Source: Nitrospirales bacterium
GTDB taxonomy: Bacteria > Nitrospirota > Nitrospiria > Nitrospirales > UBA8639
Direction of reading: 5' to 3'
Assembly (NCBI GenBank): GCA_965223295.1
Contig: CBDCWC010000002.1
Span: 64,001 to 128,000 of the forward strand
DNA length: 64,000 bases
This document shows, piece by piece, positions 1 through 29,027 of this stretch. Each line of letters starts with the position of its first letter. Position 1 is the first letter of the stretch. Below the pieces are notes generated by a model that was not told the origin of the DNA, did not search any database, and saw nothing but the letters and a program-made list of their open reading frames with translations. The position numbers were made by a program, and so were the translations under genes.

Positions 1-3000
1 TGGTTTTTCAAACATGGTTTCGAGCGAATCTTCTTTGGAGAGGTCCTGATTCTTCGTCCCTTTCTTTCTTCGTTTTCTTGCCGGAGCGTCTAAAATTAAC
101 AAGGGATTCACAAACTGCCAGGCTGGAACCGTCGACAAGAGAGCCGTGAGAAGGACGCCGCTTCGAAGGAGCCAGATAATATACCCGACGGAAAGTCCGG
201 TAGAGGCCGCGAGGCTCGAGACCACATACATTTGTTCCGTTTCGGATATCGTATTGAGAGTGTCACGTGCTTGGTCAAGGCTGTTGAGCAATCCGGAAGA
301 GGGGTTCAGCAAGGCTTGAACCTCATGTTTGAAATCGATAGTTTCAAATGGCAGTTGTAAGAGACTCAAGAGTTCATTGGCGGTGGCCCCCCGGCCTATC
401 CTGCCGTCGAGAGCTTGGAGCGTTTCGGCATCATTCCCTTGAGATGTGTTGAACGAATCTGGGCCCTTCTGGTTGTCTTCGGAGAGGTTTGAGCCATGAC
501 TGGAACCAAATCCCTGGGACTCAGTCACAAAAAACTCTCCACTTCCTGGTAATTCTTCCTGTGTATCTCCTTCGTCAGGCGGCGGTGGAGATTCAGGTGA
601 TGGATCCGGAGGAGGCGGCAGAACAACAAGTGGCAGATCGGTGACTGTGACGGCAATGGTCTGTGTATCGGTTAAGGTCCCATCAGAGGTTTGCACGATC
701 ACGTCATAGACGTTGTTGGCCCCTACGTCCGTTGGAGCTTGTAGGTCTGGAGCCGTGATGAAGGTCAGCGCGCCAGTGGTGGAGTCTATGCTGAATTGGG
801 CGGCATCAGCCCCGCCGATAATGCTATAGGTTAGTGGCGTGCCTTCGGGATCTGTGGCTGAGACATTGGTGACAGCGGTGTTGCCAGCTAAGACAGTGGC
901 GGTGGCGGTGGCACCGCCTCCATTTGACGTAATGCGGGGTGCATCGTTTTGAGGGGTAATGGTGAGATTCACCATTGCGCCGTTCGATACGGTCCCGGCA
1001 AAGTCCTGGATGGTATAGGTAAAACTGTCCGTCAGGGTCTCCGAACCGTTATGGGTATAGACCACGGTTCCATCAGTGTTGATCTGGGTGATTGTGCCGT
1101 TTGTTGGCCCGGAAACGATGGTGATGCTGGTCAAATCGAGGCCGTCGTCGGCATCCGAATCATTGCCCGCCACATTCAATGTGGCAGAGGCCCCTTCGTT
1201 AACGGTGAACGTGTCGGAAACCGCGGTGGGTGAGGTGTTCGTGGCCGTGACAAGAAGTGTGGTGCGGGCCGCGGCACTGTCAGCCGAGCCATCGTTGACG
1301 GTGACATCAATCAGCCGGTTTCCACCGGTGGGTGTGTTGGTGTCTGTGTGTTGATACTGAATGGCTTGGATCAAGGTTTCAGCTTGGGCTTCGGTGAAGA
1401 CGCCGGCGCTTTGTCTGGTAATCGTGAGGGTCGCGGTTCCGGCACCAGTGGCCACGGCGACGTGATAATTGCCTCCTGAGGTATTTTGACTGGCAACTGC
1501 TGTGCCCAAAGCAAATGTATCGCCGTCGAGAATCAATATTTCGGCATTACCATCCTGGATTCCGCTGATAGTAAGCATGACATTAGCGAAGGAGCCGCTA
1601 TCCACATCAGTGACGGTGGCATCGCTGTCAACGATGGCTACAGGCGCTCCACCTTCGGTAAACGTAGTTTGATAGCCGGTTCCGGTCGCACCAGAACTGT
1701 CATCGGCATCCAGGTCGAGCGTGGGCAGATTGTTTACGGAATTAATGGTGACAGTAATGGATCCTGTCGTGTCTAATGCGCCACCGCTGCCTTGGGCGCC
1801 GGTATTTCCGTCGTTAAAGGTGAAATCGATTTGGACGCTGACGGGCGGGTTGCTGCTGGCGTTGGCGTAGGTCAGGCGGTTTAAGAGTTGATCTACCAAG
1901 GTTGAGGTGGCATTTCCGTTAAACGTGATGACCAGCGTCCCGCCACTATTGGTGGTGGCGGTCCCGATGGTGGTGCCGCCTAACACAATGGAGCTGCCTT
2001 CCATGAGCGATCCTGTAACGCCAGCTGCGCTGAAGCGGTCATCCGCATTGGCGCCGCCATTGCGCGCAAGCGTCAATGTGGCGCCGTTATAGTTGTTAGC
2101 CACATCCAATTCAGGATCAGCGATGGTGGCGTTGGAGTCCAGGACTACGGCTATGCTGCCTTCGGTAAAGACAGGGGTGGCATCAAGGCCGCTAAAAGAT
2201 GGGGGTTCATTGACGGGGTTTACGTTGATCGTGGATCGGGCGGTTGTGCTGCTTAATGCTCCATCGCTGACCTGTACGTCTATGAAGCGATTGCCATCGG
2301 TGGGCGTGCTCGTATTGGTATGTTGGTACTGAATGGTTTGGATCAGCGTTTCGGTTTGAGCCAGGGTCCAGGTGCCTCCTCCGGCTTTCGTGATGGTGAC
2401 GTTGGCGGTTCCGGTTCCGGTGGTGATGACGACATGGTAAAGCCCCCCAGAGGTATTCTGCCCCGCCTCAGCCGTGGCTAGAGCAAAGGTACTTCCATCC
2501 AGCTCTAGGATTTCTGCGTTGCCGTCCAGAAGCCCGATGATTGCCAATGTTACGGATGTAAAGGCCGTGCTGTCAGGATCGGATAGCACGGCATCTGTAT
2601 CGGCAATGGATACCAAGCTTCCGCCTTCTGTGAACGTAAGTTGATAATCGATGCCGCTAGCGCCCGAACTGTCATCGGCATCCAGGTCTAATGTCGGGCC
2701 ATTGGATGCCACGTATTCGTAAGAGCCGATATCCACGTTCGCATCGCGGGTGGTGCTGCGTTGGTCAACAGCAGGCGCGCCGATGGAGTTGCCTGCGTTA
2801 ATAGCAGGGCTTCCGGCCAACAACGCATGGGTGAGCGTGGCTCCGCCGTTATTGGCCAACACACTCAACAATGGGTCCACGTTGTTCTGGTCCGAGGGAT
2901 CGCCTAACAAGGCTGTGCCATCACTGTCGATGTTGTTGCCCAGAGAGGTCAGGGCTACATTGGAATTACCTCCAACGTGATTCACCAAAATGGTGTTTTT

Positions 3001-4620
3001 CAGGCTGATTGATCCACTGCCGGCTAGGTTAATGCCATCATTGCCGGCATTCGAGGCAATCGTGGAGTTGGTGAGTGTCGTCGTGCCTCGGTTAAAAATG
3101 GCTCCGCCGTTTCCCACCGCACTGTTGCCGCTGACTGTGGTATTCAGCACTGTGGTGGTTGCTCCGCCCTGTATGGCCAATCCACCGCCCGTGTTGGCGC
3201 TGTTGTTCACAATGGCCACGCGATCCATAATTGCTGTGCCCAAAACGATTACCCCGCCGCCGCTGCCTGTGGTGGTATTGTCCCGCACAATGGCGTCTTG
3301 TAGCGTGAGCGTGTTGCTTGGGCCGACCCAGAGTCCTCCACCTCCCAACAGACCCGTTTCTCCGTTCTGAGCGGTGAGCCTGGAGATGGTAGCAGTGTTA
3401 CTGTGGACGGCGAATATCCGGTCCGGTGTGCTGCCAAGCCCGGAAGCATCAATGATGGTGGTTGTGGCGGAATCGCCAACAATAGTGACATCTTGTAGTA
3501 TGTCTAAGTCGCCGAAAGTGGCATCTGGCGCAAGTTCGTTGCTGGCGCCGATTGAGAGGGTATAGGTTCCAGCACTCAGGACGATTGTGTCTCCGCCTGA
3601 ACCGGCATTGGCTTGCAGAACGGCTTCGCGTAGCGACGTGACGCCATCACCAGCATCGATGACATCGGCAAAGGTCGTCACGTTGATGGTGGCTAGTTTG
3701 CCAATCCACTCTTCTTGCGTGGAGCTATCGATCACGACGTGCGAGTCAATCGTTCCGGTTTGATATTCCAGATCCCAGTTAGCGCCGTACTGCAGGCTGC
3801 CGGTGTTGTCGGTACTGGCGGCCAGGTCGGCGCCGGTAAGTTTGGCCAATAACCTGGCGGCAGCGCTCCCCGCATCGCCTTGTCCAAAGTCACAGCCGTA
3901 GATAAGAAGGTCTGCGTCTTCCGTTAAGGCTTGATGAATCGTGGCTAGTTCATCGGCGTAGGCATCTTGCATGGACATCATGTTGAGCACTCCTGTTCCC
4001 AGTTGCAATTCGCCTTGATTGCCATGAGAAATGACATGAATTGCGTCGATGCCAGACCGGTCTTTCAAGATTTCAGCCATTTGTTCGATGCCGTCTCTGG
4101 TCGGATCTAAAAGAATCACATCGGCATTAGGATCAATGCCTTCCATGAGTGTCTGATAGTCATTGATATTGGTATCGATGAATACAACTTCCTGTCGACT
4201 AGTGGGCGCTGCAACTGTGGATAGCGCTGACTGAAGATTAATGCTGTCCGTGAATGGATTTGAACGAGATTCAGATTCGGGTGGTGTACTGATTTCTTGA
4301 AGGTTGCGATCTTGAGTGATCTGATCCTGAATCACTTCCACCCCGGTGAGAAGGGCCGCCCCGTCAAACATAATTCTTGGCTCCAGAGGCAGCAGTAAAC
4401 CAATGCTTTGAAACGGTTGGTGCTCATTGGAAGGTCGGTAGGGATGTTTCTTTCTGTGTGAGGCACCTTGATTGAATCCTTGCCCCAGAATCGTGTGCGT
4501 GATTTTTGGGAGAAATCGCTGGACCCAATTCTTGCGTAGTGTAGGGGGGACAAGGTGGGATAGACCTGTATCCCTCTTGCTGTGTGTGCGTCTCATCACA
4601 TCCATTAGTTCCAAGAACAT
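1..4620 (-). CDS. Large DUF4347 surface adhesin 1 (LEPR motif, DUF4347, CSLREA/choice-of-anchor-Q beta-helix, Ig/cadherin repeats, C-terminal hydrophobic segment); 3'-partial, stop lies left of the window
   Basis: Absent from the ORF track because there is no stop in the window. Segments translated by hand: ATG at 4620 preceded by GGAGG, then MFLELMDVMRR...LLPLEPRIMFDGAALLTG, TSLREAVLQANAG, and near position 200-1 GYIIWLLRSGVLLTALLSTVPAWQFVNPLLIL...EDSLETMFEKP, all in one frame (>1540 aa). Confidence 0.9.
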   Translation of the reverse strand, partial: MFLELMDVMRRTHSKRDTGLSHLVPPTLRKNWVQRFLPKITHTILGQGFNQGASHRKKHPYRPSNEHQPFQSIGLLLPLEPRIMFDGAALLTGVEVIQDQITQDRNLQEISTPPESESRSNPFTDSINLQSALSTVAAPTSRQEVVFIDTNINDYQTLMEGIDPNADVILLDPTRDGIEQMAEILKDRSGIDAIHVISHGNQGELQLGTGVLNMMSMQDAYADELATIHQALTEDADLLIYGCDFGQGDAGSAAARLLAKLTGADLAASTDNTGSLQYGANWDLEYQTGTIDSHVVIDSSTQEEWIGKLATINVTTFADVIDAGDGVTSLREAVLQANAGSGGDTIVLSAGTYTLSIGASNELAPDATFGDLDILQDVTIVGDSATTTIIDASGLGSTPDRIFAVHSNTATISRLTAQNGETGLLGGGGLWVGPSNTLTLQDAIVRDNTTTGSGGGVIVLGTAIMDRVAIVNNSANTGGGLAIQGGATTTVLNTTVSGNSAVGNGGAIFNRGTTTLTNSTIASNAGNDGINLAGSGSISLKNTILVNHVGGNSNVALTSLGNNIDSDGTALLGDPSDQNNVDPLLSVLANNGGATLTHALLAGSPAINAGNSIGAPAVDQRSTTRDANVDIGSYEYVASNGPTLDLDADDSSGASGIDYQLTFTEGGSLVSIADTDAVLSDPDSTAFTSVTLAIIGLLDGNAEILELDGSTFALATAEAGQNTSGGLYHVVITTGTGTANVTITKAGGGTWTLAQTETLIQTIQYQHTNTSTPTDGNRFIDVQVSDGALSSTTARSTINVNPVNEPPSFSGLDATPVFTEGSIAVVLDSNATIADPELDVANNYNGATLTLARNGGANADDRFSAAGVTGSLMEGSSIVLGGTTIGTATTNSGGTLVITFNGNATSTLVDQLLNRLTYANASSNPPVSVQIDFTFNDGNTGAQGSGGALDTTGSITVTINSVNNLPTLDLDADDSSGATGTGYQTTFTEGGAPVAIVDSDATVTDVDSGSFANVMLTISGIQDGNAEILILDGDTFALGTAVASQNTSGGNYHVAVATGAGTATLTITRQSAGVFTEAQAETLIQAIQYQHTDTNTPTGGNRLIDVTVNDGSADSAAARTTLLVTATNTSPTAVSDTFTVNEGASATLNVAGNDSDADDGLDLTSITIVSGPTNGTITQINTDGTVVYTHNGSETLTDSFTYTIQDFAGTVSNGAMVNLTITPQNDAPRITSNGGGATATATVLAGNTAVTNVSATDPEGTPLTYSIIGGADAAQFSIDSTTGALTFITAPDLQAPTDVGANNVYDVIVQTSDGTLTDTQTIAVTVTDLPLVVLPPPPDPSPESPPPPDEGDTQEELPGSGEFFVTESQGFGSSHGSNLSEDNQKGPDSFNTSQGNDAETLQALDGRIGRGATANELLSLLQLPFETIDFKHEVQALLNPSSGLLNSLDQARDTLNTISETEQMYVVSSLAASTGLSVGYIIWLLRSGVLLTALLSTVPAWQFVNPLLILDAPARKRRKKGTKNQDLSKEDSLETMFEKP

Positions 4621-4904: not shown

Positions 4905-6479
4905 ATGATGAAAGACAATTGTAAGGCTTTGGCAATGGCATCAACATCTATTCATCGATGGATGTGTCTAATGGTGAGTAGTTTCATGTGTGTTGTGGGA
5001 GGCTGTGCGATCGTTCCTGAACCTCTCACTTCCGAAGAGTTAGAACAGCGTGTTCAAAATGATCTCCAGAATCTCAGTGGGTATCAGGAGCCTGTTGCTC
5101 GCCCCATAACCTTGTATGATGCTATGGCTCGGGCATTGAAGTTTAATTTGGAAGCCCGTGTCCAAGGGTTGAAGGAAATGGTAGCGCATCGGCAATTGGA
5201 TCTCGCACATTATGATATGTTACCAAAATTGGTTGCGGATGGGGCCTATAACGGACGTTCAAATTTTGCTGGTGCGCGAAGCCGCTCTTTGCTCTCAGGG
5301 CAAACATCTTTAGAGCCGTCTACCTCGTCAGATAAGGATTTGTTTACGGCGAATCTCACCTTAAGCTGGGATGTTTTAGATTTTGGCTTGTCATATGTCC
5401 GAGCGCAACAAGCATCGAATGATGTGTTGATAGCGGAAGAAGATAAACGACGCATTGCCAATCGTGTCATTCAAGAAGTCCGTTCGGCTTTTTGGAAAGC
5501 TGTCGGGGCGGAACGAGCCCTTGGGCGTCTATCCTTTTTAGACGATTGGGTGACGAAAGCCATTCAAGAGACCCGGGTGATTCGAGCCAGGGCCTTGGAG
5601 GCACCGCTGACCTCTCTCCAATATGAACGAGAACTCCTACAGGCTCAACAAGAAATACAGCAGCTGTATCAAGAACTTTCGGTGGCCAGAATTCAACTTG
5701 GGGAACTCATGAATTTGCAGCCTGGAGAGCCGTATGAACTGGTGAAACCTAAGCGGACGCCACCAGTCTCAAAGGTTAGGGACAATCTGGAGAAGTTGGA
5801 ACAACAAGCTTTACTTAATCGTCCTGAGTTGCGCACGGTGGACTATCAGAAACGTATTAATGCCAAAGAAACTAAGGTGGCCATTTTAGAACTGTTGCCA
5901 AGTCTCAATGTCTACCTTGGAGAAAATTATGATAGTAATTCGTTTCTATTTCATGATAATTGGCTGAGTTATGGAGCAAAAATCAGCTGGAATCTTATGA
6001 ATGTTTTCAGACATCCAACTCGGTTGCAAGTCATTGATGCTCAGGACGAAGTGCTGAATGCACAAAGTTTGGCGCTGACGATGACGATCATGACACAAGT
6101 GCATGTGGCCGTTGCCCAGTACGAGGCTGCCTTAAGGGAAGTCAAAATCGCTCAGCGGTATTTCGCGACGCAACTGAAAATAGCCACTCATGTTCAGCGG
6201 GCTTGGTCCTTGAATCGGCTGAGTGAACATCGTGTGATTCGAGAAAAGGTTCAAGGGTTGTTAGCCGAATTGCGGCATGAAATGGCGTTAGCCAAGTTAG
6301 AGATGGCTTATGCCAATCTATTAGCAGCCATAGGCGAAGATCCTTTCCCTGCGAAATTATCTGATGACGATTTGGACGAATTGGCCGATGCGTTGGAGCA
6401 ACGCTGGGAATTGTTAGAGCAGCATGCCATGGTTTCACCTGTGAATATGGAACAACCAGAAGGAGTGTTACAGCCATGA
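4905..6479 (+). CDS. TolC-family outer membrane channel (probable lipoprotein)
   Basis: 524 aa; lipobox-like VVGGC; two OEP-type repeats (LTLSWDVLDFGLSY, ALLNRPEL, ISWNLMN). True start may be a downstream Met. Confidence 0.9.
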   Translation: MMKDNCKALAMASTSIHRWMCLMVSSFMCVVGGCAIVPEPLTSEELEQRVQNDLQNLSGYQEPVARPITLYDAMARALKFNLEARVQGLKEMVAHRQLDLAHYDMLPKLVADGAYNGRSNFAGARSRSLLSGQTSLEPSTSSDKDLFTANLTLSWDVLDFGLSYVRAQQASNDVLIAEEDKRRIANRVIQEVRSAFWKAVGAERALGRLSFLDDWVTKAIQETRVIRARALEAPLTSLQYERELLQAQQEIQQLYQELSVARIQLGELMNLQPGEPYELVKPKRTPPVSKVRDNLEKLEQQALLNRPELRTVDYQKRINAKETKVAILELLPSLNVYLGENYDSNSFLFHDNWLSYGAKISWNLMNVFRHPTRLQVIDAQDEVLNAQSLALTMTIMTQVHVAVAQYEAALREVKIAQRYFATQLKIATHVQRAWSLNRLSEHRVIREKVQGLLAELRHEMALAKLEMAYANLLAAIGEDPFPAKLSDDDLDELADALEQRWELLEQHAMVSPVNMEQPEGVLQP

Positions 6480-7315
6480 AATCAAAAATTTCAATCACCG
6501 TAATATGTGTGGCGGGCCTCATGGTGGGAAGTGGAGACAACAGTCTTGCGAAAAAAGGAAGCCTTCAATCTGCCAATCTGAATGCTGTTCGTGGAATAGT
6601 CAAGCCCACTCAAGAAGCCGTCATTTCTAGTGAATTACAAGCCCGAGTCAAACAAATCCCTTTTCGGGACGGGCAACGGTTTAAAAAAGGAGACCTACTT
6701 ATTGAATTTGACTGTTCGAAATACTTGGCAGAACTAGCGGCGGCCAAAGCTGAATTCGAGGCACGGGAAAAAACGGCTATCAATAATAAGGAGTTAGCCA
6801 AACTCCATGGCATAGCTCAGCTAGAAGTTGATATCTCTCGGGCAGAGGTCAAACAGGCCAAAGCGGCTGTGAGAAGTGCCAATTTGGCCGTCAGACATTG
6901 CCGAATTACGGCCCCATTTTCGGGACGGATAGTGAAAACGCTCGTTCATCCTTATGAAAGTGTGAATCCTTATGATGAAGTGATGAGTGTGTTAAATGAT
7001 CAGAATTTCGAAATTGAATTGATTCTACCGTCCACGTCTCTGCGGTGGGTGGCGAAAACCAGCCCATTTAAATTTTTTATTGATGAAACCCAAGAAGTCT
7101 ATGCTGCTGAAGTCGTCGATATTGGGGCTCGTGTGGATCCCGTGAGTCAAACCATTCGTATCTTTGGTCAGTTTAGGAAGCAACCGAAGCAGGTGTTGGC
7201 GGGCATGAGCGGGAGTGCCAGATTTACCGATCGAAAGCTTATATCTCAAAACAAGAAATCAACCTTCAATCCCAGTACATCGCCGAGTCCTTCAGCCAAA
7301 ACAGCAAAAAAGTAA
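6476..7315 (+). CDS. Periplasmic adaptor / membrane fusion protein (RND/HlyD type)
   Basis: 279 aa; N-terminal signal/anchor, lipoyl half-motifs (GQRFKKGDLL, ITAPFSGRI), VDPVSQT and LAGMSG motifs; ATGA overlap with tolC. Confidence 0.9.
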   Translation: MKSKISITVICVAGLMVGSGDNSLAKKGSLQSANLNAVRGIVKPTQEAVISSELQARVKQIPFRDGQRFKKGDLLIEFDCSKYLAELAAAKAEFEAREKTAINNKELAKLHGIAQLEVDISRAEVKQAKAAVRSANLAVRHCRITAPFSGRIVKTLVHPYESVNPYDEVMSVLNDQNFEIELILPSTSLRWVAKTSPFKFFIDETQEVYAAEVVDIGARVDPVSQTIRIFGQFRKQPKQVLAGMSGSARFTDRKLISQNKKSTFNPSTSPSPSAKTAKK

Positions 7316-7379
7316 GTCGCTTTGACATTATGTACAGGCTTGACCATTTCCAGCGTATAGAGTTGTCGGTCTTCAACGC

Positions 7380-8843
7380 ATGAGCCAGAATTTTCGAGAC
7401 ACATGCCAGTCTTCTGTTGGTGCGGGGGTGATGGAGCCTCCAGCACCCACTCAAGCTTCATCAGCGTCAACAAGTGGGCAATCTTCGGCACCGCCGGACA
7501 AGGGTTCTGACATTGATCCTCAATTGCTGTTGGCCCTTCTGCAATTAGAAAGTCAGGTCCGTGCTGCGCAAACTGTCAAAGAGTTATGTTTTCTCTTAGC
7601 CAATGAAACTCGCCGTCTTATTGGGTTTCGGCAGGCCTGTGTATTTTCCTTTGGCACGAATTTACGCCAGGCTTGCCAAGTTGAGGTGGTGTCGAGTGTG
7701 GCGATTGTGGATCGAAAATCTCCTATGGTGCAGTGGATGGAAGAAGTTGTGTCCGACCTCTGGGGTCGGCAGGCGTTGCAAGCCCCATGTCATTTGAATG
7801 TCGAGCAATGTGCCAAGCATCTTCAAGCCGATTGGAGACGGTTTGCCTTTCCACATGTGTTGTGGTGTCCCATTGTTTGGAATAGCCAACAAGTGATGGG
7901 AGGGGTCTGGCTGGCACGGGAACGTCCCTGGCAAGAAGGTGAAATTCAATTGATTCGGCGATTTGCCGAAACGGCAGCCCATGCCTGGAATGCTTTAGGG
8001 AAAACCAAGACTTCTGTTAAAAATTGGACATTGTCTCAACGTTGGTTATGGGTTGTGTTGGTCCTGATGGTTGGAGTGATGTGTGTGCCGATTCGGCTAT
8101 CAACCTTGGCTCCGGTTGAAGTGGTAGCTCATGAACCAGCCGTGGTGACAGCTCCGCTCGATGGAGTCATTGCTGAAATTTTCGTTGAACCCAATACCGT
8201 GGTGACAGAAGGACAGGCACTGTACCGCTTTGAAGACACGAAATTTCGTAACGACTATGAAGTCGCTGAGAAAAACTTAGCAGTAGGGTTTATGGAATAT
8301 CGAAAAATGACTCAGGGTGCATTTGTCGATGATGAAACAGGTGCAGGGATGCCTGTGCAAGCTTCTGAAGTGCGGTTGAAAGAAACCGAACGGGACTATG
8401 CCTGGGAAATCTTACAGCAAGTGGAGGTGAAAGCCCCAAGGGGAGGCATTGTCCTGTTCAATGATAAATCCGACTGGATCGGGAAGCCTGTGGTAATTGG
8501 AGAACGGATCATGGAAGTGGCAAATCCGAAAGAATATGAATTAAAAATTGATCTACCTGTGGAAGATGCGATTGTCTTGCGGGAGGGGGCCGAGGTTGAG
8601 GTTTTTTTAAATGCAGATCCCTTGGGAGCGATTCCTGCCAGTTTGTCCCATGCCAGTTACCATGCCGAAGTGTTGCCCGATAATGTGTTGGCCTATCGAG
8701 TGAAAGCCAAGGTTACTGAGCCACCAGAATCCATTCGGATCGGGTGGCAAGGTACGGCTAAGATTTATGGTGAACGTGTATCGCTCTTTTTCTATTTGTT
8801 CCGACGACCGCTGTCCGTCTTTCGCCAAACCGTAGGCTGGTAA
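7380..8843 (+). CDS. GAF-like domain + TM + HlyD-family adaptor
   Basis: 487 aa; N-terminal GAF-like region (HVLWCPI...GGVWLARERPW), one TM helix, lipoyl motifs VTAPLDGVI and VKAPRGGI, C-terminal RIGWQGTAKI...YLFRRP. Confidence 0.85.
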   Translation: MSQNFRDTCQSSVGAGVMEPPAPTQASSASTSGQSSAPPDKGSDIDPQLLLALLQLESQVRAAQTVKELCFLLANETRRLIGFRQACVFSFGTNLRQACQVEVVSSVAIVDRKSPMVQWMEEVVSDLWGRQALQAPCHLNVEQCAKHLQADWRRFAFPHVLWCPIVWNSQQVMGGVWLARERPWQEGEIQLIRRFAETAAHAWNALGKTKTSVKNWTLSQRWLWVVLVLMVGVMCVPIRLSTLAPVEVVAHEPAVVTAPLDGVIAEIFVEPNTVVTEGQALYRFEDTKFRNDYEVAEKNLAVGFMEYRKMTQGAFVDDETGAGMPVQASEVRLKETERDYAWEILQQVEVKAPRGGIVLFNDKSDWIGKPVVIGERIMEVANPKEYELKIDLPVEDAIVLREGAEVEVFLNADPLGAIPASLSHASYHAEVLPDNVLAYRVKAKVTEPPESIRIGWQGTAKIYGERVSLFFYLFRRPLSVFRQTVGW

Positions 8844-11068: not shown

Positions 11069-11467
11069 TCATTTCAATAAGGTGAATTCAGAAGATTTGC
11101 TGGCCTGACGATCAAATGTCATTGTTGTGGTGCAATGCTTGCTGTGATTGATTCGACTCAAGAGATAATCTGCAAAATCTGCTGGATTGTTCCGATAATC
11201 CTCTAAGGCTTGCCAAACCACCTGTGGCTCGTCAACACGAAGTTGAGCCACGCGCAAAATTTGTTCAAGAGTTTTGATCAGGGTGTTCTTAGGCTGGTCA
11301 TAGCATCCTTCTAATACCCAAAGGGTTTCGCATAACACCAAATGATTGAGAAATCCTGGGTCGTCTTTTGTACAGGTTCCCTCGATTAGAACTGTCGCAG
11401 ATTTGGCTTGAGGAAGATCGTCCTGGACAAGGTATCGAACTAAAACGTTGGTATCAATCCCTATCAC
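11069..11467 (-). CDS. vapC: PIN-domain toxin (VapC family)
   Basis: 132 aa; MIGIDTNVLVRYL, ETLWVL, ADFAD and TFDR acidic PIN motifs. Confidence 0.92.
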   Translation of the reverse strand: MIGIDTNVLVRYLVQDDLPQAKSATVLIEGTCTKDDPGFLNHLVLCETLWVLEGCYDQPKNTLIKTLEQILRVAQLRVDEPQVVWQALEDYRNNPADFADYLLSRINHSKHCTTTMTFDRQASKSSEFTLLK

Positions 11468-18000: not shown

Positions 18001-21000
18001 ACGAGGCGGCAGATATTTTGGGCTTTACCAACACCTCGAAGATTCAAGGCAATCTCGTAGGCGATACCTTGACACTCACGGTCATTGGCGGGCAGACCGC
18101 GACGGTTGCGGAGTTTGAGGCGGCCTTGCGCACCGTCACTTTCTATAACGGAAGTGATACGCCAGGAGTGTTGGATCGGACGATTACCTTTAGCTTTGAT
18201 GATGGAGTGGATAGCTCCAACTCATCTACGAAAACGGTGCAATTGTCAGCCGTGAATGATCAAGCTATTGCTGATCTTAATGGGGTGGATGGGGGAGGAA
18301 ATAATTATTCCACGACCTTTACGGAAGGATCGAGTGCTGTCAATGTCACTGATACCGATGCCACACTGAGTGATGTAGATCACTCCACATACGATTCCAT
18401 CGGCATCAATTTGTCCGGCTTTGTGGATGGGAGTAATGAAAAGATCACCATCGGAGGTTATACCTTCACGTTTGGCACCGCAGAAACCGTTGTCCGAACT
18501 GTCGGGGCCACGGATTTTGAGATCGACTTTGATGGGAGTGGCTTTTCTATACAAAAAAATATCAGTGGCGAAATGCCGGAGGCAGACCTGCAAACTCTCC
18601 TTCGTGGCATCACGTACGAAAATATTTCAGAAAACCCGACTATTGGGAATCGTACCATCGATTTTATTCCCCAAGATGGTGATGCCTTGGTCGGACAGAC
18701 CTCTACCAGCACCATTACGGTAGCCGCTACCAACGATGCACCCGTTATTGCCAATTTAGGCGGTGATGCGCTCACCTACACCGAAGGTGATGGAGCCCAA
18801 GTAATTGAGCAGAGTGCCGATGCTGCCGTTTCGGATGTGGATAGTTCCAACTTCGATACCGGCACCTTAACGGTTTCCTTCCAAGCTGGCAGTGATTCCG
18901 CCGAAGACATCTTGAGTATTCGCAACCAAGGCACGGGGGCAGGGCAGATTGGCGTGAGTGGTTCAAATGTCACCTATCAAGGGGTCACGATCGGCACATT
19001 CACTGGGGGATCGGGTGGGACCGATCTGGTAATTACCTTGAATGCCAGTGCTGATGCAGATGCCGTCAGCGCCTTAATCCAAAATATCACCTATGAGAAT
19101 ACCGATATCGATAATCCCACGACTGGTGCCCGCACCGTGCGTTACATTCTGACCGATGGGGATAGCGGCACGAGCGCCAATTACGACACGACCGTGACAG
19201 TCAGCGCGGTCAATGATATGCCTATCATCACGACCTCCGGAGGAATTTCGATTGACGAAGATACCTCGGGCACGATGATGCTTTCCATCAATGATCCTGA
19301 CGTTGGCAGTGGAAACCTTCGAGTGACACTGACCGTCAGCAATGGATTGATTTCTTTAGCTTCCACCACTGGGCTGACCTTCACAACGGGTGATGGTACC
19401 AGTGATCTTACGATGACCTTCGAAGGCACCCAAGCCGATGTGAACACGGCCTTAGCCACGATCACCTATACACCAAACCCGGATTATACGGGATCAGATT
19501 CGCTGAGTTATTCCATTAATGATTTGGGGAATACAGGTGGACCTGCCAATACGTTTAATGCGGCTGTGGGCATCACCGTGAATTCTGTCAACGACGCGCC
19601 GGTCAATACAGTGCCGGGGGCGCAAGTGGTGGCGGAAGATACCGCGCTGAATATCAGCGGCATTAGCGTCAATGACGTGGATGGTAATCTGAGCAAGGTG
19701 CAGCTGGCGGTAACCAACGGGACCTTGAACGTGACGCTCTCGGGCAGTGCTACGATTAGCACGGGTGCGAATGGGACGAGCACCTTGACCTTAAGCGGCA
19801 CGCAAGCTGACATCAATGCGACCTTGGCGAGCCTCAGCTATCAAGGGACCCTGAACTATACCGGGGCGGATACGCTGACGGTGACCAGCACTGACGCTAA
19901 CAGTGTGACAGACGTCGATACGGTGGCGATTAATGTCGGATTGTTTGTGACCACGACCAGTGATGTGTCCGATGGCGATACGTCCTCCACTGCGGCTCTG
20001 TTGGCGAACATGGGGGCTGATGGATTCATCTCTTTGCGAGAAGCCATTGAAGCGACCAATAACACGCTGGGCTTGGACACCATTAGTTTTAACATTGGAT
20101 TAAGCGATGCTGGACATGTGTATTACCAAGATGATGCGATTGGTGGATCGCTTTCGACAATAGTGAATACGACGTTAGCGGATGGCAGTATTTCAGACTT
20201 TGATGCCGATTATGTTGGTGGTGCTGGGCAAGGTTTTTCTTGGTGGCAGATTGAACCTACCTCTCTGTTACCGAGCATTACCGATTCGGTGATTATTGAT
20301 GGGTCGACGCAAGCTGGGTGGCAAGCCGGGCGTCCGGTCATTGAACTCAGTGGGTCGTTGGCTGGGACGGGAGCGAATTTCAATGGCTTGACCCTCAACT
20401 CAGCAGCCGGCAGTACGATTCGTGGTTTGGCGATTAATCAATTCGATTGGGCTGGCATTCAGCTCAATGGCGGCGGCGGACATACGATTGTTAGCAATTT
20501 TATTGGCACGGATATTACCGGCACCCAAGACTTGGGCAATCGAATCAACGGGATCGAGGTGAGTTCGCTTAATAGTAACAATGTGATTGGTGGGACCACG
20601 TTAGTTGATCGGAATGTGATTGCTGGAAACGACCAAGGGGAGATCACGTTAGGTTCTGGCACAGGGAATATCGTGCAGGGTAATTATTTGGGTGTGGATG
20701 TCACAGGGATGAATCGGTTGGGTAATAGCTATGGATTGCGTATCTATGGTGACAGCAATCAAATCGGGGGAACCGGCGCAGGAGAAGAAAATGTCATTGC
20801 TGGGATACGTTTAGAAACCAGCGCGCAATCCAATACCTTTGAAGGCAATTTTATTGGAACCAATGCAGCTGGAACAGCATCCATCGGGGGGACCTGGGGG
20901 ATGGTGGTGTATGGATCGGATAATGTGATTGGTGGCACCGCCACGGGGGCTGGCAATGTGATTGCTGGGAATTCCTCAATCGGCATCTTGTTATCGGGGA

Positions 21001-24000
21001 CCTCCGCGACCGGGAACTTTGTCCAAGGGAATTTCATTGGAACAGATATTACCGGAACATTAGCGCTTGGCAATGGGGATGGGGTTCGGATTGAAAATGG
21101 GGCGAGTAATAATACCATTGGCGGTTCCACCGCTGGAGTACGCAATATTATTTCAGGCAATACGAGTGACGGGATTGAAATATCTGGAGCAACTTCCACG
21201 GGCAACATTGTGCAGGGTAATTATATTGGTACGGACGTGACCGGCACAGTTGATCTGGGAAATAATGTGGCCGGTATTCGGCTCAATGGGGCGAATAATA
21301 TTATTGGTGGGACGACGGCCGGAGAGGGCAATGTGATTGCTGGGAATAGTTCTGGGATTACCATTGCCTCAACCGATGCGACGGGGAACACGATTGAAGG
21401 GAATTATATTGGCACGGATGCCACGGGTACGGCGGCATTGGGAAATTCGTTTGGTATTTGGGTGACGGCAGGGTCAAGCAACGTTATTGGGGGCACCGTA
21501 TCTGGAGCGGGTAATGTAATTGCCGGGAATACCAATCATGGTATTTATCTGCTTGGAAGTGGGACAACAGGAAACCTTGTTCAGGGAAATTATATCGGCA
21601 CGACGTCTGGAAGCCTTGCCCTTGGTAATGGTGGAGCTGGGGTGTTTGTGAGTAGTGGAGCGTCAAGCAATATCATTGGCGGAACGAGTGTTGGTGCGCG
21701 CAATGTGATATCTGGTAATACAAGTGATGGAATCTATGTTACTGGGGCAGGGACAGACGACAACGTCATTCAGGGTAATTTTATTGGGACGAATGTGGCT
21801 GGAACTGCGGCCCTTGGGAATGGTGATCGAGGTATTCAAATCGAAGATAACGCCTCCAATACGCAAATTGGTGGCACTGCAGCTGGTGCGGGTAATGTGA
21901 TTTCTGGGAATAGCAACGATGGCATCATCCTATCGAATTCCTCTACTGGCAGCATCATTGAGGGGAATTTTATTGGCACTGATCTGACCGGAACAACCAA
22001 TATTGGCAATGGCGCCTGGGGCATACGAATAACGAATTCCAGTGGTAACACCATAGGAGGAACAGAGGTTGATGCCGGAAACGCCATTGCGTACAACGCG
22101 CAAGCAGGTATCGGACTCCAGGACACGTCTGGTGCTGGCAATAGTATTCTCGGTAATGCGATCTACTTGAATTCGGGGATAGGGATTGATCTTGGAATTG
22201 ATGGCGTGACCGCTAATGATACGGGAGATGGGGATACGGGGCCTAATGATCTGCAAAATTTCCCGGTGTTAACTTCCGTGTACACAGATGGGTCCAATCT
22301 GAATGTGATTGGTACTTTTAACAGCACGGCCAGCACGACCTATCGCATCGAATTTTTTGCCAGTACGACGGCGGATGGCTCAGGCTATGGAGAAGCGGAA
22401 CGCTATCTCGGCTTTGCCACGGTCACGACTGATGGAAGTGGCAATGCCATCTTCAATGCCACGCTCGCTGCAGCTGTAGGCCTTGGCGAATTTGTCACGG
22501 CCACGGCTACAGTTGATCTTGGTGGAGGCAATTATGAGAATACGTCGGAGTTTGCCGCTAACGTAGCAGCGGGAAATCCAATTCCCTTCATTGACCTTGA
22601 TGCTGATGACAGTTCGGGTGCCGGCATCACCAACTTCGTGACGAGTTTTACAGAAGACGGTGGGCCAGTCACATTGGCCGATAGTGATGCTACCCTTACG
22701 GACCTGGATAGCGCCAATCTCACTTCTCTTACTGTCACGATTACCAACTTACAGGATGGAGCTTTTGAACTCTTAGCGGCTGATACAACGGGGACCAATA
22801 TCACCGCGAGCTATGATAGTGGGACAGGCGTTCTCACATTGAGTGGTACGGATACCGTCGCCAATTATGAACAGGTGTTGCGCACCGTCATGTATGACAA
22901 CACCTCTGATAGCCCAACAACAACGACCAGGGTCATTCAGTTTCAAGCCAACGACGGGACCTACTCAGGAAATGTTGCGACCACGAATCTTACGGTAACT
23001 GCCGTCAATGATGCGCCGGTGAACACGGTACCGGGCGCGCAGACGGTGGCGGAAGATACCTCGCTGGCTATCAGTGGCATTTCCGTGACCGATGTGGACG
23101 GCAACCTCTCGACGGTGCAGCTGAGCGTGACGAACGGGACCTTAAACGTCACGCTCTCGGGCAGTGCTACGATCAGCGCGGGAGCCAATGGGAGTAATAC
23201 CCTGACGCTCTCGGGGTCCCATGCTGACATCAATGCGACGTTGACGTCGCTGAGCTATCAAGGGACCCTGAACTATACCGGCAGCGATACGCTGACCATC
23301 ACGAGCACGGATGGTAACTCGGCGACGGATGTGGACACGGTGGCCATCACGGTGACCAACGTGGATGATGCGGCGACCATTGGCGGGCAGACGAGCTACA
23401 GTGGCAACGAAGGCGACGTGGGCAGCGGCACCATGACGGCCACCGACCCGGATGGGCTGACCGACGGGACGTACTTCACGGTGACGACGCCGGCCAGTAA
23501 CGGCACCGCGGCCATTGACCCAGCGACGGGCGCGTGGACGTTTACGCCGACCGACCCCAACTGGTTTGGAACGGACAGCTTCACGGTGACGGTGACGGAC
23601 GATCAAGGGGGCACGACCACGCAAGTGATCTCGGTGACCCTCGCCAACGTGGATGATGCGGCGACCATTGGCGGGCAGACGAGCTACAGTGGCAACGAAG
23701 GCGACGTGGGCAGCGGCACCATGACGGCCACCGACCCGGATGGGCTGACCGACGGGACGTACTTCACGGTGACGACGCCGGCCAGTAACGGCACCGCGGC
23801 CATTGACCCAGCGACGGGCGCGTGGACGTTTACGCCGACCGACCCCAACTGGTTTGGAACGGACAGCTTCACGGTGACGGTGACGGACGATCAAGGGGGC
23901 ACGACCACGCAAGTGATCTCGGTGACCCTCGCCAACGTGGATGATGCGGCGACCATTGGCGGGCAGACGAGCTACAGTGGCAACGAAGGCGACGTGGGCA

Positions 24001-27000
24001 GCGGCACCATGACGGCCACCGACCCGGATGGGCTGACCGACGGGACGTACTTCACGGTGACGACGCCGGCCAGTAACGGCACCGCGGCCATTGACCCAGC
24101 GACGGGCGCGTGGACGTTTACGCCGACCGACCCCAACTGGTTTGGAACGGACAGCTTCACGGTGACGGTGACGGACGATCAAGGGGGCACGACCACGCAA
24201 GTGATCTCGGTGACCCTCGCCAACGTGGATGATGCGGCGACCATTGGCGGGCAGACGAGCTACAGTGGCAACGAAGGCGACGTGGGCAGCGGCACCATGA
24301 CGGCCACCGACCCGGATGGGCTGACCGACGGGACGTACTTCACGGTGACGACGCCGGCCAGTAACGGCACCGCGGCCATTGACCCAGCGACGGGCGCGTG
24401 GACGTTTACGCCGACCGACCCCAACTGGTTTGGAACGGACAGCTTCACGGTGACGGTGACGGACGATCAAGGGGGCACGACCACGCAAGTGATCTCGGTG
24501 ACCCTCGCCAACGTGGATGATGCGGCGACCATTGGCGGGCAGACGAGCTACAGTGGCAAGAAGGCGACGTGGGCAGCGGCACCATGACGGCCACCGACCC
24601 GGATGGGCTGACCGACGGGACGTACTTCACGGTGACGACGCCGGCCAGTAACGGCACCGCGGCCATTGACCCAGCGACGGGCGCGTGGACGTTTACGCCG
24701 ACCGACCCCAACTGGTTTGGAACGGACAGCTTCACGGTGACGGTGACGGACGATCAAGGGGGCACGACCACGCAAGTGATCTCGGTGACCCTCGCCAACG
24801 TGGATGATGCGGCGACCATTGGCGGGCAGACGAGCTACAGTGGCAACGAAGGCGACGTGGGCAGCGGCACCATGACGGCCACCGACCCGGATGGGCTGAC
24901 CGACGGGACGTACTTCACGGTGACGACGCCGGCCAGTAACGGCACCGCGGCCATTGACCCAGCGACGGGCGCGTGGACGTTTACGCCGACCGACCCCAAC
25001 TGGTTTGGAACGGACAGCTTCACGGTGACGGTGACGGACGATCAAGGGGGCACGACCACGCAAGTGATCTCGGTGACCCTCGCCAACGTGGATGATGCGG
25101 CGACCATTGGCGGGCAGACGAGCTACAGTGGCAACGAAGGCGACGTGGGCAGCGGCACCATGACGGCCACCGACCCGGATGGGCTGACCGACGGGACGTA
25201 CTTCACGGTGACGACGCCGGCCAGTAACGGCACCGCGGCCATTGACCCAGCGACGGGCGCGTGGACGTTTACGCCGACCGACCCCAACTGGTTTGGAACG
25301 GACAGCTTCACGGTGACGGTGACGGACGATCAAGGGGGCACGACCACGCAAGTGATCTCGGTGACCCTCGCCAACGTGGATGATGCGGCGACCATTGGCG
25401 GGCAGACGAGCTACAGTGGCAACGAAGGCGACGTGGGCAGCGGCACCATGACGGCCACCGACCCGGATGGGCTGACCGACGGGACGTACTTCACGGTGAC
25501 GACGCCGGCCAGTAACGGCACCGCGGCCATTGACCCAGCGACGGGCGCGTGGATCGTTTACGCCGACCGACCCCAACTGGTTTGGAACGGACAGCTTCAC
25601 GGTGACGGTGACGGACGATCAAGGGGGCACGACCACGCAAGTGATCTCGGTGACCCTCGCCAACGTGGATGATGCGGCGACCATTGGCGGGCAGACGAGC
25701 TACAGTGGCAACGAAGGCGACGTGGGCAGCGGCACCATGACGGCCACCGACCCGGATGGGCTGACCGACGGGACGTACTTCACGGTGACGACGCCGGCCA
25801 GTAACGGCACCGCGGCCATTGACCCAGCGACGGGCGCGTGGACGTTTACGCCGACCGACCCCAACTGGTTTGGAACGGACAGCTTCACGGTGACGGTGAC
25901 GGACGATCAAGGGGGCACGACCACGCAAGTGATCTCGGTGACCCTCGCCAACGTGGATGATGCGGCGACCATTGGCGGGCAGACGAGCTACAGTGGCAAC
26001 GAAGGCGACGTGGGCAGCGGCACCATGACGGCCACCGACCCGGATGGGCTGACCGACGGGACGTACTTCACGGTGACGACGCCGGCCAGTAACGGCACCG
26101 CGGCCATTGACCCAGCGACGGGCGCGTGGACGTTTACGCCGACCGACCCCAACTGGTTTGGAACGGACAGCTTCACGGTGACGGTGACGGACGATCAAGG
26201 GGGCACGACCACGCAAGTGATCTCGGTGACCCTCGCCAACGTGGATGATGCGGCGACCATTGGCGGGCAGACGAGCTACAGTGGCAACGAAGGCGACGTG
26301 GGCAGCGGCACCATGACGGCCACCGACCCGGATGGGCTGACCGACGGGACGTACTTCACGGTGACGACGCCGGCCAGTAACGGCACCGCGGCCATTGACC
26401 CAGCGACGGGCGCGTGGACGTTTACGCCGACCGACCCCAACTGGTTTGGAACGGACAGCTTCACGGTGACGGTGACGGACGATCAAGGGGGCACGACCAC
26501 GCAAGTGATCTCGGTGACCCTCGCCAACGTGGATGATGCGGCGACCATTGGCGGGCAGACGAGCTACAGTGGCAACGAAGGCGACGTGGGCAGCGGCACC
26601 ATGACGGCCACCGACCCGGATGGGCTGACCGACGGGACGTACTTCACGGTGACGACGCCGGCCAGTAACGGCACCGCGGCCATTGACCCAGCGACGGGCG
26701 CGTGGACGTTTACGCCGACCGACCCCAACTGGTTTGGAACGGACAGCTTCACGGTGACGGTGACGGACGATCAAGGGGGCACGACCACGCAAGTGATCTC
26801 GGTGACCCTCGCCAACGTGGATGATGCGGCGACCATTGGCGGGCAGACGAGCTACAGTGGCAACGAAGGCGACGTGGGCAGCGGCACCATGACGGCCACC
26901 GACCCGGATGGGCTGACCGACGGGACGTACTTCACGGTGACGACGCCGGCCAGTAACGGCACCGCGGCCATTGACCCAGCGACGGGCGCGTGGACGTTTA

Positions 27001-29027
27001 CGCCGACCGACCCCAACTGGTTTGGAACGGACAGCTTCACGGTGACGGTGACGGACGATCAAGGGGGCACGACCACGCAAGTGATCTCGGTGACCCTCGC
27101 CAACGTGGATGATGCGGCGACCATTGGCGGGCAGACGAGCTACAGTGGCAACGAAGGCGACGTGGGCAGCGGCACCATGACGGCCACCGACCCGGATGGG
27201 CTGACCGACGGGACGTACTTCACGGTGACGACGCCGGCCAGTAACGGCACCGCGGCCATTGACCCAGCGACGGGCGCGTGGACGTTTACGCCGACCGACC
27301 CCAACTGGTTTGGAACGGACAGCTTCACGGTGACGGTGACGGACGATCAAGGGGGCACGACCACGCAAGTGATCTCGGTGACCCTCGCCAACGTGGATGA
27401 TGCGGCGACCATTGGCGGGCAGACGAGCTACAGTGGCAACGAAGGCGACGTGGGCAGCGGCACCATGACGGCCACCGACCCGGATGGGCTGACCGACGGG
27501 ACGTACTTCACGGTGACGACGCCGGCCAGTAACGGCACCGCGGCCATTGACCCAGCGACGGGCGCGTGGACGTTTACGCCGACCGACCCCAACTGGTTTG
27601 GAACGGACAGCTTCACGGTGACGGTGACGGACGATCAAGGGGGCACGACCACGCAAGTGATCAGCGTGACGTTGGCGAACGTGAACGATGGGCCAGTGGC
27701 GAACGACGATAGTTTTACCACTCTAGAAGACACTCCGATTTCTGCAACACTTGGGACAGGAGTCTTAGCCAATGATACCGATGTGGATGGAGATTCGTTA
27801 ACCGTTAACACAATTCCTATCATGGACGTCTCAAATGGGGCATTAGTTCTGAATACCGATGGCAGCTTTACCTATACACCGAATATCGGCTGGAGTGGAA
27901 CGGATACCTTTACCTATCAGATTACGGATGGTAATGGAGGCAGTGCGCAGGCCACCGTGACCCTTACGGTAGTCAGTGTGAACGATTCCCCGGTCTTCAC
28001 GTCGCATGGTGGTGGAGCCACCGCTGGTGTCAGCGTTGCGGAGAATCTGACCAATGTGGCGGCCATGACGGCGATGGATCCCGATGGGGATCCCTTGACC
28101 TATAGCATTGTGGGAGGCGAGGATGCCGCTCGTTTCACGGTCGATGCGACGACAGGGGCACTAAGGTTTATGAGCGCTCCAGATTTTGAGCATCCAACTG
28201 ACGTCGGCGGAGACAATGTGTATGAAGTGCAGGTGCAGGTGAGTGATGGGCGGGGGGGTGCGACTCTCCAAACGCTAACCGTGTCGGTGACGGACGTCGC
28301 GGAGGGCTTGGTCCTGCTACCGGATCCCACCCCGGATCCCACTCCGGAGCCGACGCCGGAACCAGAGCTGATGCCCGAGGTAGAGGCCGAAATAGCAATG
28401 TTGGCACCCAGTGGTTCCGGGGGAGAAGGCGAGGGGAGCCGCGAAGGGACATATGCGGAGCTAGCCAGTCGAGGGCTGGAAGACCAAGCCCAGGTTGGAA
28501 CCGACCGTGAGGTGGTGGATGTGCGGAACTTGCCGCCGCTACTGCGACCAGGGGCCTGGGCCACCACGTCCGACCAGATTCGGTCCTATTATCCCGATCC
28601 GGTAGATATGACGAAAACAGCATTGCCGACTGAATTTCTTCAGCAATTGAGTACATTTTCCGATGAATTAGGAGAGACAATGGACGAGCAGACCACGGCC
28701 CGGTCCATGTTCGTGAACATGGTGAAGAGTACGGGGCTGGCGCTGTGGACAGGAATTGTGGCTTGGATGGTCCGAGGCGGCGCGTTACTAACAGGCTTGA
28801 TGGCAGCGGCTCTCCCGGCGTGGCGGCAGTTTGATCCGGTGCCGATTCTGCGGATGGATAAAAAGGACCAGGAAGCCTGGTCTCGCCGAGTGAAGGAAGC
28901 GGCCACAATGGAAGCCCGAGAACATCAGGGGTTAGATCAGATTCTTCAGGATGCGGGTAAAGAATCCTCTCCGTCTACATACGAAACGTCATCTGCGAAG
29001 AATACAAAATTCACATCACAGTCTTAG
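12021..29027 (+). CDS. Giant DUF4347 adhesin 2 (about 5668 aa if the two indels are corrected): LEPR motif, DUF4347, LamG/pentraxin domains, Ig/cadherin repeats, parallel beta-helix, 15 tandem Ig-like repeats, cadherin, Pro-rich linker, hydrophobic C-terminus
   Basis: ORFs 12021-24587, 24569-25672 and 25530-29027 are joined by a 1-bp deletion (24559/24560) and a 1-bp insertion (25554) inside the repeat array. Total span is 17007 nt = 5669 codons, and the first and last pieces are in the same frame. Confidence 0.88.
23358..27677 (+). repeat. Intragenic tandem array: 15 x 288 bp (96-aa Ig/cadherin-like unit)
   Basis: Unit starts AACGTGGATGATGCGGCGACC at 23358, 23646, 23934, 24222, 24510, 24797, 25085, 25373, 25662, 25950, 26238, 26526, 26814, 27102 and 27390. 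Copies appear identical apart from two 1-bp indels and the tail of the last unit. Confidence 0.97.

Follow-up and report, generated by a model that had tools for sequence, protein, structure and literature searches.

How giant adhesin-like proteins without an obvious secretion signal could leave a diderm cell is the question raised by a stretch of 64,000 nucleotides from a Nitrospirales bacterium (GenBank assembly GCA_965223295.1, contig CBDCWC010000002.1, positions 64,001 to 128,000 of the forward strand; the whole stretch is called here the window). The genes of two giant proteins, A and B, stand on either side of an operon encoding a TolC-family outer membrane factor (OMF), a short membrane fusion protein (MFP, a periplasmic adaptor), a GAF-MFP and a fusion of an M50 site-2 protease with an MFP (M50-MFP); these four genes are referred to below as the cassette. 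A preliminary description of the window had proposed that the M50-MFP (M50-HlyD) supplies the inner-membrane part of a distinct adhesin export pathway. The genomic co-occurrence behind this proposal holds, whereas we infer the status of the giants as substrates, their export through the cassette, their cleavage and the energy source. On balance we lean, by somewhat more than an even judgement, to the reading of the cassette as an exporter dedicated to the giants and guided by their leader.

Giant A is built of a leader, a DUF4347 domain, beta-helix-like repeats, Ig/cadherin domains, a proline-rich linker and a C-terminal hydrophobic motif, and giant B of a leader, DUF4347, LamG, Ig/cadherin domains, a repeat stalk, a linker and the C-terminal motif (Table 1). 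The LEPRIMFDGAA motif reported near both N-termini was found there, about 65 residues ahead of DUF4347 in each giant, and the reported lack of a Sec signal and of RTX nonapeptides was borne out: the hydropathy scan revealed no hydrophobic N-terminal segment in either giant, and the RTX pattern had no match in giant A or in the two outer frames of giant B, the middle frame being made of the same 96-aa unit as the repeat array. Giant B had been taken for one open frame; it is split into three because of a 1-base deletion near 24559 and a compensating 1-base insertion near 25553, both within the array of identical 288-base repeats, and its full span would equal 5668 codons. As the two indels compensate each other and fall in identical repeats, assembly error is the simplest explanation, and they are probably residual errors of this kind. 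The number of repeats may itself be a product of the assembly.

The link between cassette and giants is best seen across genomes. The leader was described by a profile of 40 positions, in which L, E, R and D are invariant (consensus LExR-hh-FD, ending in [FY]D-[GA]A). In Nitrospirota, M50-MFP and DUF4347 occur in the same 10 of 121 genomes and in none of the 111 others. Among 301 genomes of Pseudomonadota, M50-MFP was found in 72, DUF4347 in 68, both in 59 and DUF4347 alone in nine; the leader profile matched 59. Comparison of the lists by hand placed these matches in 59 of the 62 genomes with the SecA-less clade of M50-MFP (see below) and in none of the 239 others, among which are the nine DUF4347-only genomes and 10 with the SecA clade only, it being understood that the sampled genomes are related and the counts overstate their independence. 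Thirty-five of the 59 matching genomes had contributed to the training of the profile; among the 27 untrained genomes of the clade, 24 match. The two gene sets therefore do co-occur, as the preliminary description had required of them, with one amendment: profiled against M50-HlyD, it is the N-terminal LEPR motif, not DUF4347, that tracks the machine. DUF4347 was rejected as the export tag because nine genomes without the cassette have it and six genomes with the SecA-less clade do not. The DUF4347 proteins of these nine genomes gave no match to the leader profile. As we judge them by eye, the domain stands at the very start, follows a signal-like segment or has an ABC gene as neighbour; the C-termini presumably are of RTX, GlyGly-CTERM, IPTL-CTERM or barrel type (one of the nine was undetected by local search and two open reading frames (ORFs) were cut). 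Leaderless DUF4347 proteins are also present inside cassette-bearing genomes (L066:1078-2550; L067).

Searched against the 50% library, the profile yields 1516 clusters at E 0.001; in all of the 150 best library matches the matched stretch ends at or before residue 116. The existing 24-position LEPR-XLL model, NF012209, gave no match at E 0.01 or 0.001, nor any in the control genomes. A match to the LEPR pattern elsewhere in the source genome (near C3:1589971) turned out to be a secretin.

The structure of the M50-MFP suggests how such a leader might be read. In its model (predicted local distance difference test, pLDDT, 82.5) three strands plus three helices make up the N-terminus (residues 11-90 at pLDDT 77-88), and residues 11-98 match leader-binding proteins of lasso peptides (6jx3_B, Z 10.0, root-mean-square deviation (rmsd) 2.8, 82 aligned; 5v1u_A, Z 9.5) as well as PqqD (5sxy, Z 8.6). 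By this comparison the N-terminus is predicted to carry the recognition fold (RRE/PqqD) of RiPPs, peptides that are made on ribosomes and then modified post-translationally. Pfam PqqD was unscored on the window protein and on two clade relatives, where the RRE is seen by fold comparison only; relatives from the SecA clade do match it. The membrane part of the model matches RseP (Z 10.3), SpoIVFB (Z 9.5) and an archaeal site-2 protease (Z 8.7), the C-terminal part matches MacA/EmrA (Z 14.4), and the Foldseek list for the whole model held adaptor structures only. HExxH is kept in 92 of 92 M50-MFP sequences, and all 61 aligned relatives keep the zinc ligands with the catalytic Glu (H204, E205, H208 and D306; HELGH at 204-208). 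The model shows about seven long membrane helices, against six by the hydropathy cut; an odd number would make the RRE cytoplasmic and the adaptor periplasmic. A predicted complex of the RRE (residues 8-135) with the 40-residue leader scored 0.02 against a mark of 0.32, the fold of the partner being uncertain and the run having no controls; it counts neither for nor against binding.

The top NCBIfam match of the M50-MFP is the daptide intramembrane metalloprotease NF041824 (residues 36-394, E 2.9e-47), although it remains below the family cut-offs (161.6 vs 300 bits; 27 vs 225 bits for NF058609). In the daptide system, the site-2 protease reported to take off a leader containing the motif ELExMEAP has an RRE fused to its N-terminus (10.1101/2023.03.08.531785); for the epipeptide M50 protease EpeP, both cleavage and export of the peptide have been suggested (PMC10885120). 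Like daptide MpaP (NF041824) and epipeptide YydH/EpeP (NF058609), the M50-MFP has an RRE followed by M50, with homology over residues 36-394, and the leaders of daptides and giants, as far as described, both begin with L-E. Unlike MpaP and EpeP, it falls short of the family cut-off, is fused to an MFP and belongs to a diderm envelope with TolC, and its likely cargo has 1,000 to >10,000 aa instead of being a short peptide. That the nearest characterised proteases act on short RiPP precursors and that the adaptors resemble EmrA and MacA would suit an operon for efflux of small molecules or small peptides, with the giants as chance neighbours; set against the co-occurrence counts (10/10 vs 0/111 in Nitrospirota, 59/62 vs 0/239 in Pseudomonadota) and the adjacency of giant and operon that persists in varied gene orders, this explanation is strongly disfavoured and hardly credible to us.

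The dedicated export machine that we prefer would have to work without a motor of its own. ORF and domain searches found no ABC, RND or SecA gene in the locus, in agreement with the preliminary description as to ABC and RND, the first ABC match on the contig lying at 52025, 23 kb beyond giant B. The source genome (given as 100% complete, 3 contigs) has no canonical type I ABC, its best ABC reaching 341.8 bits against the TIGR03375 cut-off of 693.1, and no type I HlyD; the genome-wide check for a type I ABC that had been proposed thus came out negative at that cut-off. Only one protein (907 aa) matches SecA_DEAD; the genome further has five fused ABC exporters as well as an unlinked ABC-OMF-HlyD operon (L154:5759-11495) with an NhaR-like regulator, common in the order. 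On three type I models, whose cut-offs are 510-726, the ABC of this operon reaches 77-116 bits. Its HlyD is present in 19 of 19 neighbouring-family genomes, 10 of them without the cassette, and when used as a query gave no match in a close relative that has the cassette, nor in any of 20 proteobacterial cassette genomes. The unlinked operon was rejected as a partner, since its distribution does not follow that of the cassette, and no co-distributed ABC elsewhere, which would have spoken against the original proposal, was found.

The same picture holds for the clade. In 42 SecA-less loci, chosen for long contigs and including some close kin, SecA and RND genes were each found in 0/42 (MFS genes were outside that search), each partner adaptor in 40/42 and the OMF in 39/42 after extension of the windows. 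All 76 SecA-less-clade genomes have a housekeeping SecA, and 55 of them a single SecA_DEAD match; type I HlyD, scored on at most 19 candidates per genome, is absent at E 1e-35 in eight, the source genome among them, and seven genomes lack both a second SecA match and type I HlyD. The term ATPase-less, used in the preliminary description, is apt for the locus and the clade, but housekeeping SecA may act in trans. A type I system borrowing a resident ABC exporter in trans, docked on the cassette adaptors, would draw on the canonical type I HlyD of 67 of the 76 genomes and, in the source genome, on the five fused ABC exporters and the ABC-OMF-HlyD operon. Proteobacterial clade giants moreover end in a short [FL]xxQ[LIVFM] helix (17/21, vs 0/7, 0/7 and 22/1529 in controls, the pattern having been drawn from the same sequences in which it was counted), amphipathic in appearance, which we take to recall type I C-terminal signals. 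Yet the source genome and seven others do without type I HlyD, the distribution of the unlinked operon does not match, the giants have no RTX repeats and the cassette moves on plasmids without an ABC gene, all of which makes borrowing very unlikely.

Like type I systems (HlyBD-TolC, LapBCE-LapA), the cassette sets an OMF and MFP conduit beside a giant Ig/cadherin repeat protein, and peptidase-containing ABC transporters also couple leader removal to export. It is nevertheless not a type I system, because it includes no dedicated ABC transporter and its giants are without RTX repeats. It has three dissimilar adaptors, and an RRE metalloprotease in place of the C39 domain of peptidase-containing ABC transporters. 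The giants bear a conserved N-terminal tag, whereas type I substrates have an uncleaved C-terminal signal and are exported C-terminus first in one step; their candidate retention segment is C-terminal, that of type I giant adhesins N-terminal. From RND/MFS tripartite pumps the cassette differs in that none of the ORFs of the locus encodes an energising subunit of RND, MFS or ABC type.

M50-MFP matches form two score groups, which a quick tree (49 + 12 rows, midpoint root only) splits with SH-aLRT 100. In the distant clade a shortened SecA adjoins in 10 of 12 loci, and the leader ends in LL[SA] where seen; the leader type thus switches with the M50 clade. Two Nitrospira-family genomes carry both a SecA-less and a SecA-type cassette, each with its own leader variant nearby (L134, L135, L146, L148). 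Kamneva, Poudel and Ward described in silico in 2015 a module of M50-HlyD, GAF-HlyD, HlyD and OEP without ABC, and proposed SecA_DEAD as its ATPase and the M50 protein as its inner-membrane pore, with the cargo unnamed (PMC4452313); 'adhes', 'PqqD', 'leader' and 'giant' do not occur in the main text. As far as that main text describes it, the distant SecA clade is this module, and the cassette is its SecA-less sister clade, a kind known only from genomes. The two have the same M50-HlyD, GAF-HlyD, HlyD and OEP set and no ABC, and the homologous M50-MFP of the 2015 module scores about 280 bits on our M50-MFP profile. Unlike the 2015 module as described, the cassette has no second SecA_DEAD in the locus, the genome or the 42 clade loci, and it forms a separate clade, distinguished by a leader variant of its own and by additional charged membrane residues that are conserved. 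The earlier remark that no mechanistic description was known has to be corrected in part, as the M50 protein had been proposed as a pore for the SecA version, although no cargo was named in the text cited. R333, K383, E393 and E405 are kept in 47-48 of 49 SecA-less M50-MFPs; the membrane-helix Glu E393 is found in 48/49 of them against 0/12 proteins of the SecA clade, none of which is acidic there, the alignment of the two clades near this position being uncertain and column 383 all gaps in the SecA clade.

The sister clade lends itself to a two-step route, in which the giants would cross SecYEG with the leader as a non-classical signal, driven by the housekeeping SecA or, in the sister clade, the second SecA, the RRE-M50 would be the signal peptidase, and the adaptors and TolC would take over from the periplasm. 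It would accommodate the SecA-like ATPase in 10/12 sister loci, the housekeeping SecA in 76/76 cassette genomes, the leaderless 996-aa protein with a signal-like N-terminus that shares the C-terminal motif and sensor (see below), a type II secretion cluster behind the cassette in one plasmid, and the periplasmic pool of Chlorobium LEPRxLL giants (10.64898/2026.03.19.712371). The leader, however, is without a hydrophobic core, and the fusion of protease and adaptor suggests a direct hand-over. It also counts against two steps that a chain must be unfolded to pass a TolC channel, whereas one of 5000 residues would fold once in the periplasm. We regard this route as unlikely.

In the preferred reading, that of a dedicated exporter, the other end of the giants would have a role of its own in Nitrospirales. 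In both giants a low-complexity linker of about 155 residues leads up to the terminal hydrophobic motif, of which the source genome has four copies. Associated with it is a family of sensors with two hydrophobic segments around a likely periplasmic domain, followed by PAS and a kinase or GGDEF; for the periplasmic domain no Pfam family scored over cut-off, and its Atlas neighbours are single-Cache-like, a lead only. All three members of the family in the source genome start directly behind a copy of the motif, the third of them behind a leaderless 996-aa protein with the same motif and a 56-residue linker (L162:1541-6087), whose N-terminal segment looks signal-like by eye. In Nitrospirota eight of 12 sensor copies start at most 200 bases from a motif match and four are orphans, while for nine of 17 motif matches the next gene is not a sensor; loci of this sort had served to train both profiles. 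None of the training sequences came from Pseudomonadota, where 3/3 motif-bearing giants have the same sensor next. The gene arrangement argues for a coupling of the C-terminal motif with a sensor kinase or cyclase of the inner membrane, an association new here. A C-terminus that must meet an inner-membrane sensor could not lead the way out, which would favour N-terminus-first export. As a general export tag the motif was rejected, being present in only 3/72 proteobacterial M50-MFP genomes.

The DUF4347 domain was modelled with a pLDDT of 95.4. Its top match was a DUF4347 chain (9qpe_G, Z 13.2, rmsd 3.0, 146 aligned), followed by SAVED-CHAT (Z 8.9, rmsd 3.1, 131 aligned) and by C11 proteases, legumain and separase (Z 6.8-7.6), the Z values being middling; Foldseek gave caspase-3 and legumain at E 7e-4. 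In 64 sequences the Cys of the His-Gly...Cys dyad is invariant and His-Gly is kept in at least 90%. DUF4347 is thus predicted to be a caspase-like (clan CD) domain with an intact dyad, an assignment new here, and given this fold and the kept dyad the giants may process themselves.

Both ends of the giants bear on another possibility, namely that the machine holds, releases or signals from an adhesin exported by some other route, the M50 protease cutting a membrane-near segment; a cut at, for example, the C-terminal motif would shed the adhesin or switch the cognate sensor. M50 proteases do cut in or near membranes, in keeping with the RseP and SpoIVFB fold matches, the membrane-like C-terminal segment is tied to sensors, and DUF4347 could remove the leader alone. 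The motif, though, is absent in 69 of the 72 proteobacterial M50-MFP genomes while the N-terminal leader is nearly universal, an RRE suggests a leader, and the cassette genomes share no other export route. This possibility appears to us distinctly improbable.

The export machine that we favour could operate as follows. The cytoplasmic RRE of the M50 fusion would bind the N-terminal LExR-hh-FD leader; the membrane domain of the M50 protease, standing in for an ABC transporter, would then admit the chain, and the zinc site would clip the leader. The unfolded chain would pass, N-terminus first and in one step, through the three adaptors into TolC and fold outside. In Nitrospirales the C-terminal motif would stay at the inner membrane behind its linker, so tethering the adhesin across the envelope, and could from there signal to the cognate sensor kinase or diguanylate cyclase. 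Energy is the weakest step: there is no dedicated ATPase, and our first guess, proton motive force with a folding ratchet, is prompted by the one conserved membrane Glu; the second would be housekeeping SecA or the ribosome. The full version of this scheme, a one-step secretion class of its own in which an ion-driven, protease-gated channel derived from RiPP leader processing exports proteins of several thousand residues N-terminus first without an ATPase, and in which the Nitrospirales adhesin remains threaded in the conduit, its C-terminus docked on the sensor kinase or diguanylate cyclase, as a trans-envelope cyclic di-GMP touch sensor, is put forward only tentatively.

Several points weigh against the reading of the cassette as exporter. 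The site-2 protease fold is not known to contain a protein-conducting pore. Co-occurrence, apart from being counted in related genomes, would look the same for processing, anchoring or signalling as for export. With a caspase-like domain in the giants themselves, the M50 protease need not be the enzyme that removes the leader. The alignment of the two clades around E393 is uncertain. The C-terminal motif is only moderately hydrophobic (1.69 in giant A, <1.6 in giant B) and rare among proteobacterial M50-MFP genomes. An ABC gene does lie near three of the 42 loci (once 3.9 kb past the OMF, twice past the OMF but on the opposite strand), and most cassette genomes have, as given above, a type I HlyD over cut-off. 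In the related epipeptide system deletion of epeP did not abolish EpeX production (PMC10885120). Literature coverage, which excluded most subscription journals, held no experiments on any member of the cassette. Finally, Chlorobium LEPRxLL giants were mostly recovered in cytoplasmic fractions, with a periplasmic pool (10.64898/2026.03.19.712371); a regulated or two-step route fits this, and a strictly co-translational one-step route sits uneasily with it.

The same study, with the only experiments found close to this question, supports the export of leader-bearing giants, for it reports that the Chlorobium LEPRxLL giants are produced and transferred to the partner cell (10.64898/2026.03.19.712371). 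Its authors propose SapC, TolC and one HlyD as the exporter, and 'M50' is absent from the text as available. The LEPR-XLL (NF012209)/Planc_extracel giants, exemplified by Cag_663 as well as Cag_665 of Chlorobium, are described there as having an N-terminal LEPR, an adjoining TolC gene and no known signal, as have the giants of the window; the motif of the latter, unlike LEPR-XLL, ends in [FY]D-[GA]A, the LL[SA] form going with the SecA clade. DUF4347 has been noted in Azospirillum adhesins, with no M50 or HlyD in the accessible text (PMC13723633), and the available parts of PMC8277102, PMC4446572, PMC3557214, PMC11451748, PMC11169474 and 10.1101/2023.11.21.568195 hold nothing on the cassette. 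Within the full texts covered we found no publication on the SecA-less cassette, its RRE, its cargo or the leader as a signal.

The SecA-less clade is widespread, with 62 of 301 sampled Pseudomonadota and 10 of 121 Nitrospirota, besides plasmids. If the exporter reading is true, it would account for the exit of a large class of signal-less giant proteins, give a function to the LEPR motif and to DUF4347, and mean that a site-2 protease can replace an ABC transporter. In that case the short N-terminal tag, being portable, would together with its exporter of four genes be a useful tool for very large cargo.

The positions of the features are collected in Table 1. All parts of the operon named in the preliminary description (TolC with plain, GAF-like-fused and M50-fused MFPs) were located by coordinates and domain matches on the + strand at 4905-10972, with stop/start overlap at two of the three junctions and a 64-base gap at the remaining one. 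The GAF domain scores 24.8 bits against a cut-off of 22.4, and the adaptors are RND/EmrA/MacA-like, with <33 bits on TIGR01843. The operon does lie between the giants, as claimed, but giant A is divergent from it and a MazE/PIN toxin-antitoxin pair precedes giant B. Two further features, the predicted RRE fold of the M50-MFP and the C-terminal motif common to both giants, had escaped that description. The toxin-antitoxin pair is an insertion outside the cassette; similar DNA occurs in the same place in three related loci, and a 205-aa ORF at 11368-11985 is its antisense shadow. The scan for promoters and terminators gave fewer sites than shuffled sequences (3 vs 8.9; 5 vs 8.0). The 13 closest loci (Nitrospirales / Nitrospirota / Nitrospirae) have 62-84% identity over the M50 protein, of which the source genome has one copy.

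Table 1 Features of the cassette, the two giants and their neighbours (window coordinates)
Feature	Position	Strand	Remarks
Giant A	1-4620, last 57 bases left of window	-	1558 aa; divergent from operon
Giant A, C-terminal hydrophobic motif	70-282	-	
Giant A, DUF4347, predicted caspase-like	3700-4188	-	His199 + Cys243
Giant A, leader motif LEPRIMFDGAA	4354-4386	-	starts at residue 79
TolC-family outer membrane factor	4905-6479	+	524 aa; Pfam OEP; lipoprotein-type signal, Cys34
Short membrane fusion protein	6476-7315	+	279 aa
GAF - one transmembrane helix - membrane fusion protein	7380-8843	+	487 aa
Predicted RRE - M50 site-2 protease - membrane fusion protein	8843-10972	+	709 aa; ~7 membrane helices (model)
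Predicted RRE (PqqD-like) fold of M50-MFP, residues 11-98	8873-9136	+	structure comparison
M50 active-site motifs HELGH, NPLLRFDG	9452-9763	+	
MazE/AbrB antitoxin and PIN toxin	11069-11702	-	antitoxin 11454-11702, toxin 11069-11467
Giant B	12021-29027	+	three frames: 12021-24587, 24521-25672, 25500-29027
Giant B, leader motif LEPRIMFDGAA	12177-12209	+	starts at residue 53
Giant B, DUF4347, predicted caspase-like	12375-12869	+	His173 + Cys217
Giant B, identical 288-base (96-aa) Ig-like repeats	23361-27680	+	15 units, no mismatch
Giant B, C-terminal hydrophobic motif	28644-28868	+	
106-aa ORF, second degenerate copy of C-terminal motif	29363-29683	+	directly before cyclase
Membrane sensor - PAS - GGDEF diguanylate cyclase	29680-31191	+	member of motif-following sensor family
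Hybrid histidine kinase, homologous membrane sensor domain	directly after giant A, outside window (L155:6413-9007)	-	

The cassette was also matched by 66 plasmid records. Four of the six plasmids inspected have a surface protein, TolC, MFP, second MFP and M50-MFP with no ABC or SecA; the other two are of the SecA type. The SecA-less clade is found on plasmids of E. coli, Azospirillum, Variovorax and Magnetospirillum; the giant of the E. coli plasmid carries leader and DUF4347, and the E. coli cassette is present in 23 of 5426 complete E. coli genomes. On a 36-kb Magnetospirillum plasmid the cassette stands behind a 492-codon ELWxxDGT repeat gene, near conjugation genes (L019:9502-17088), and the product of this gene is a possible small, tractable cargo candidate. 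On the Variovorax plasmid the genes immediately after the cassette form a type II secretion cluster (L018:17282-25912). In loci L116 (9423-17342) and L118 the giant gene is inserted amid the adaptor genes, so that the order varies and the content is kept, and one SecA-less-clade M50-MFP (L123:5875-8001) stands without partner genes within the fetched stretch.

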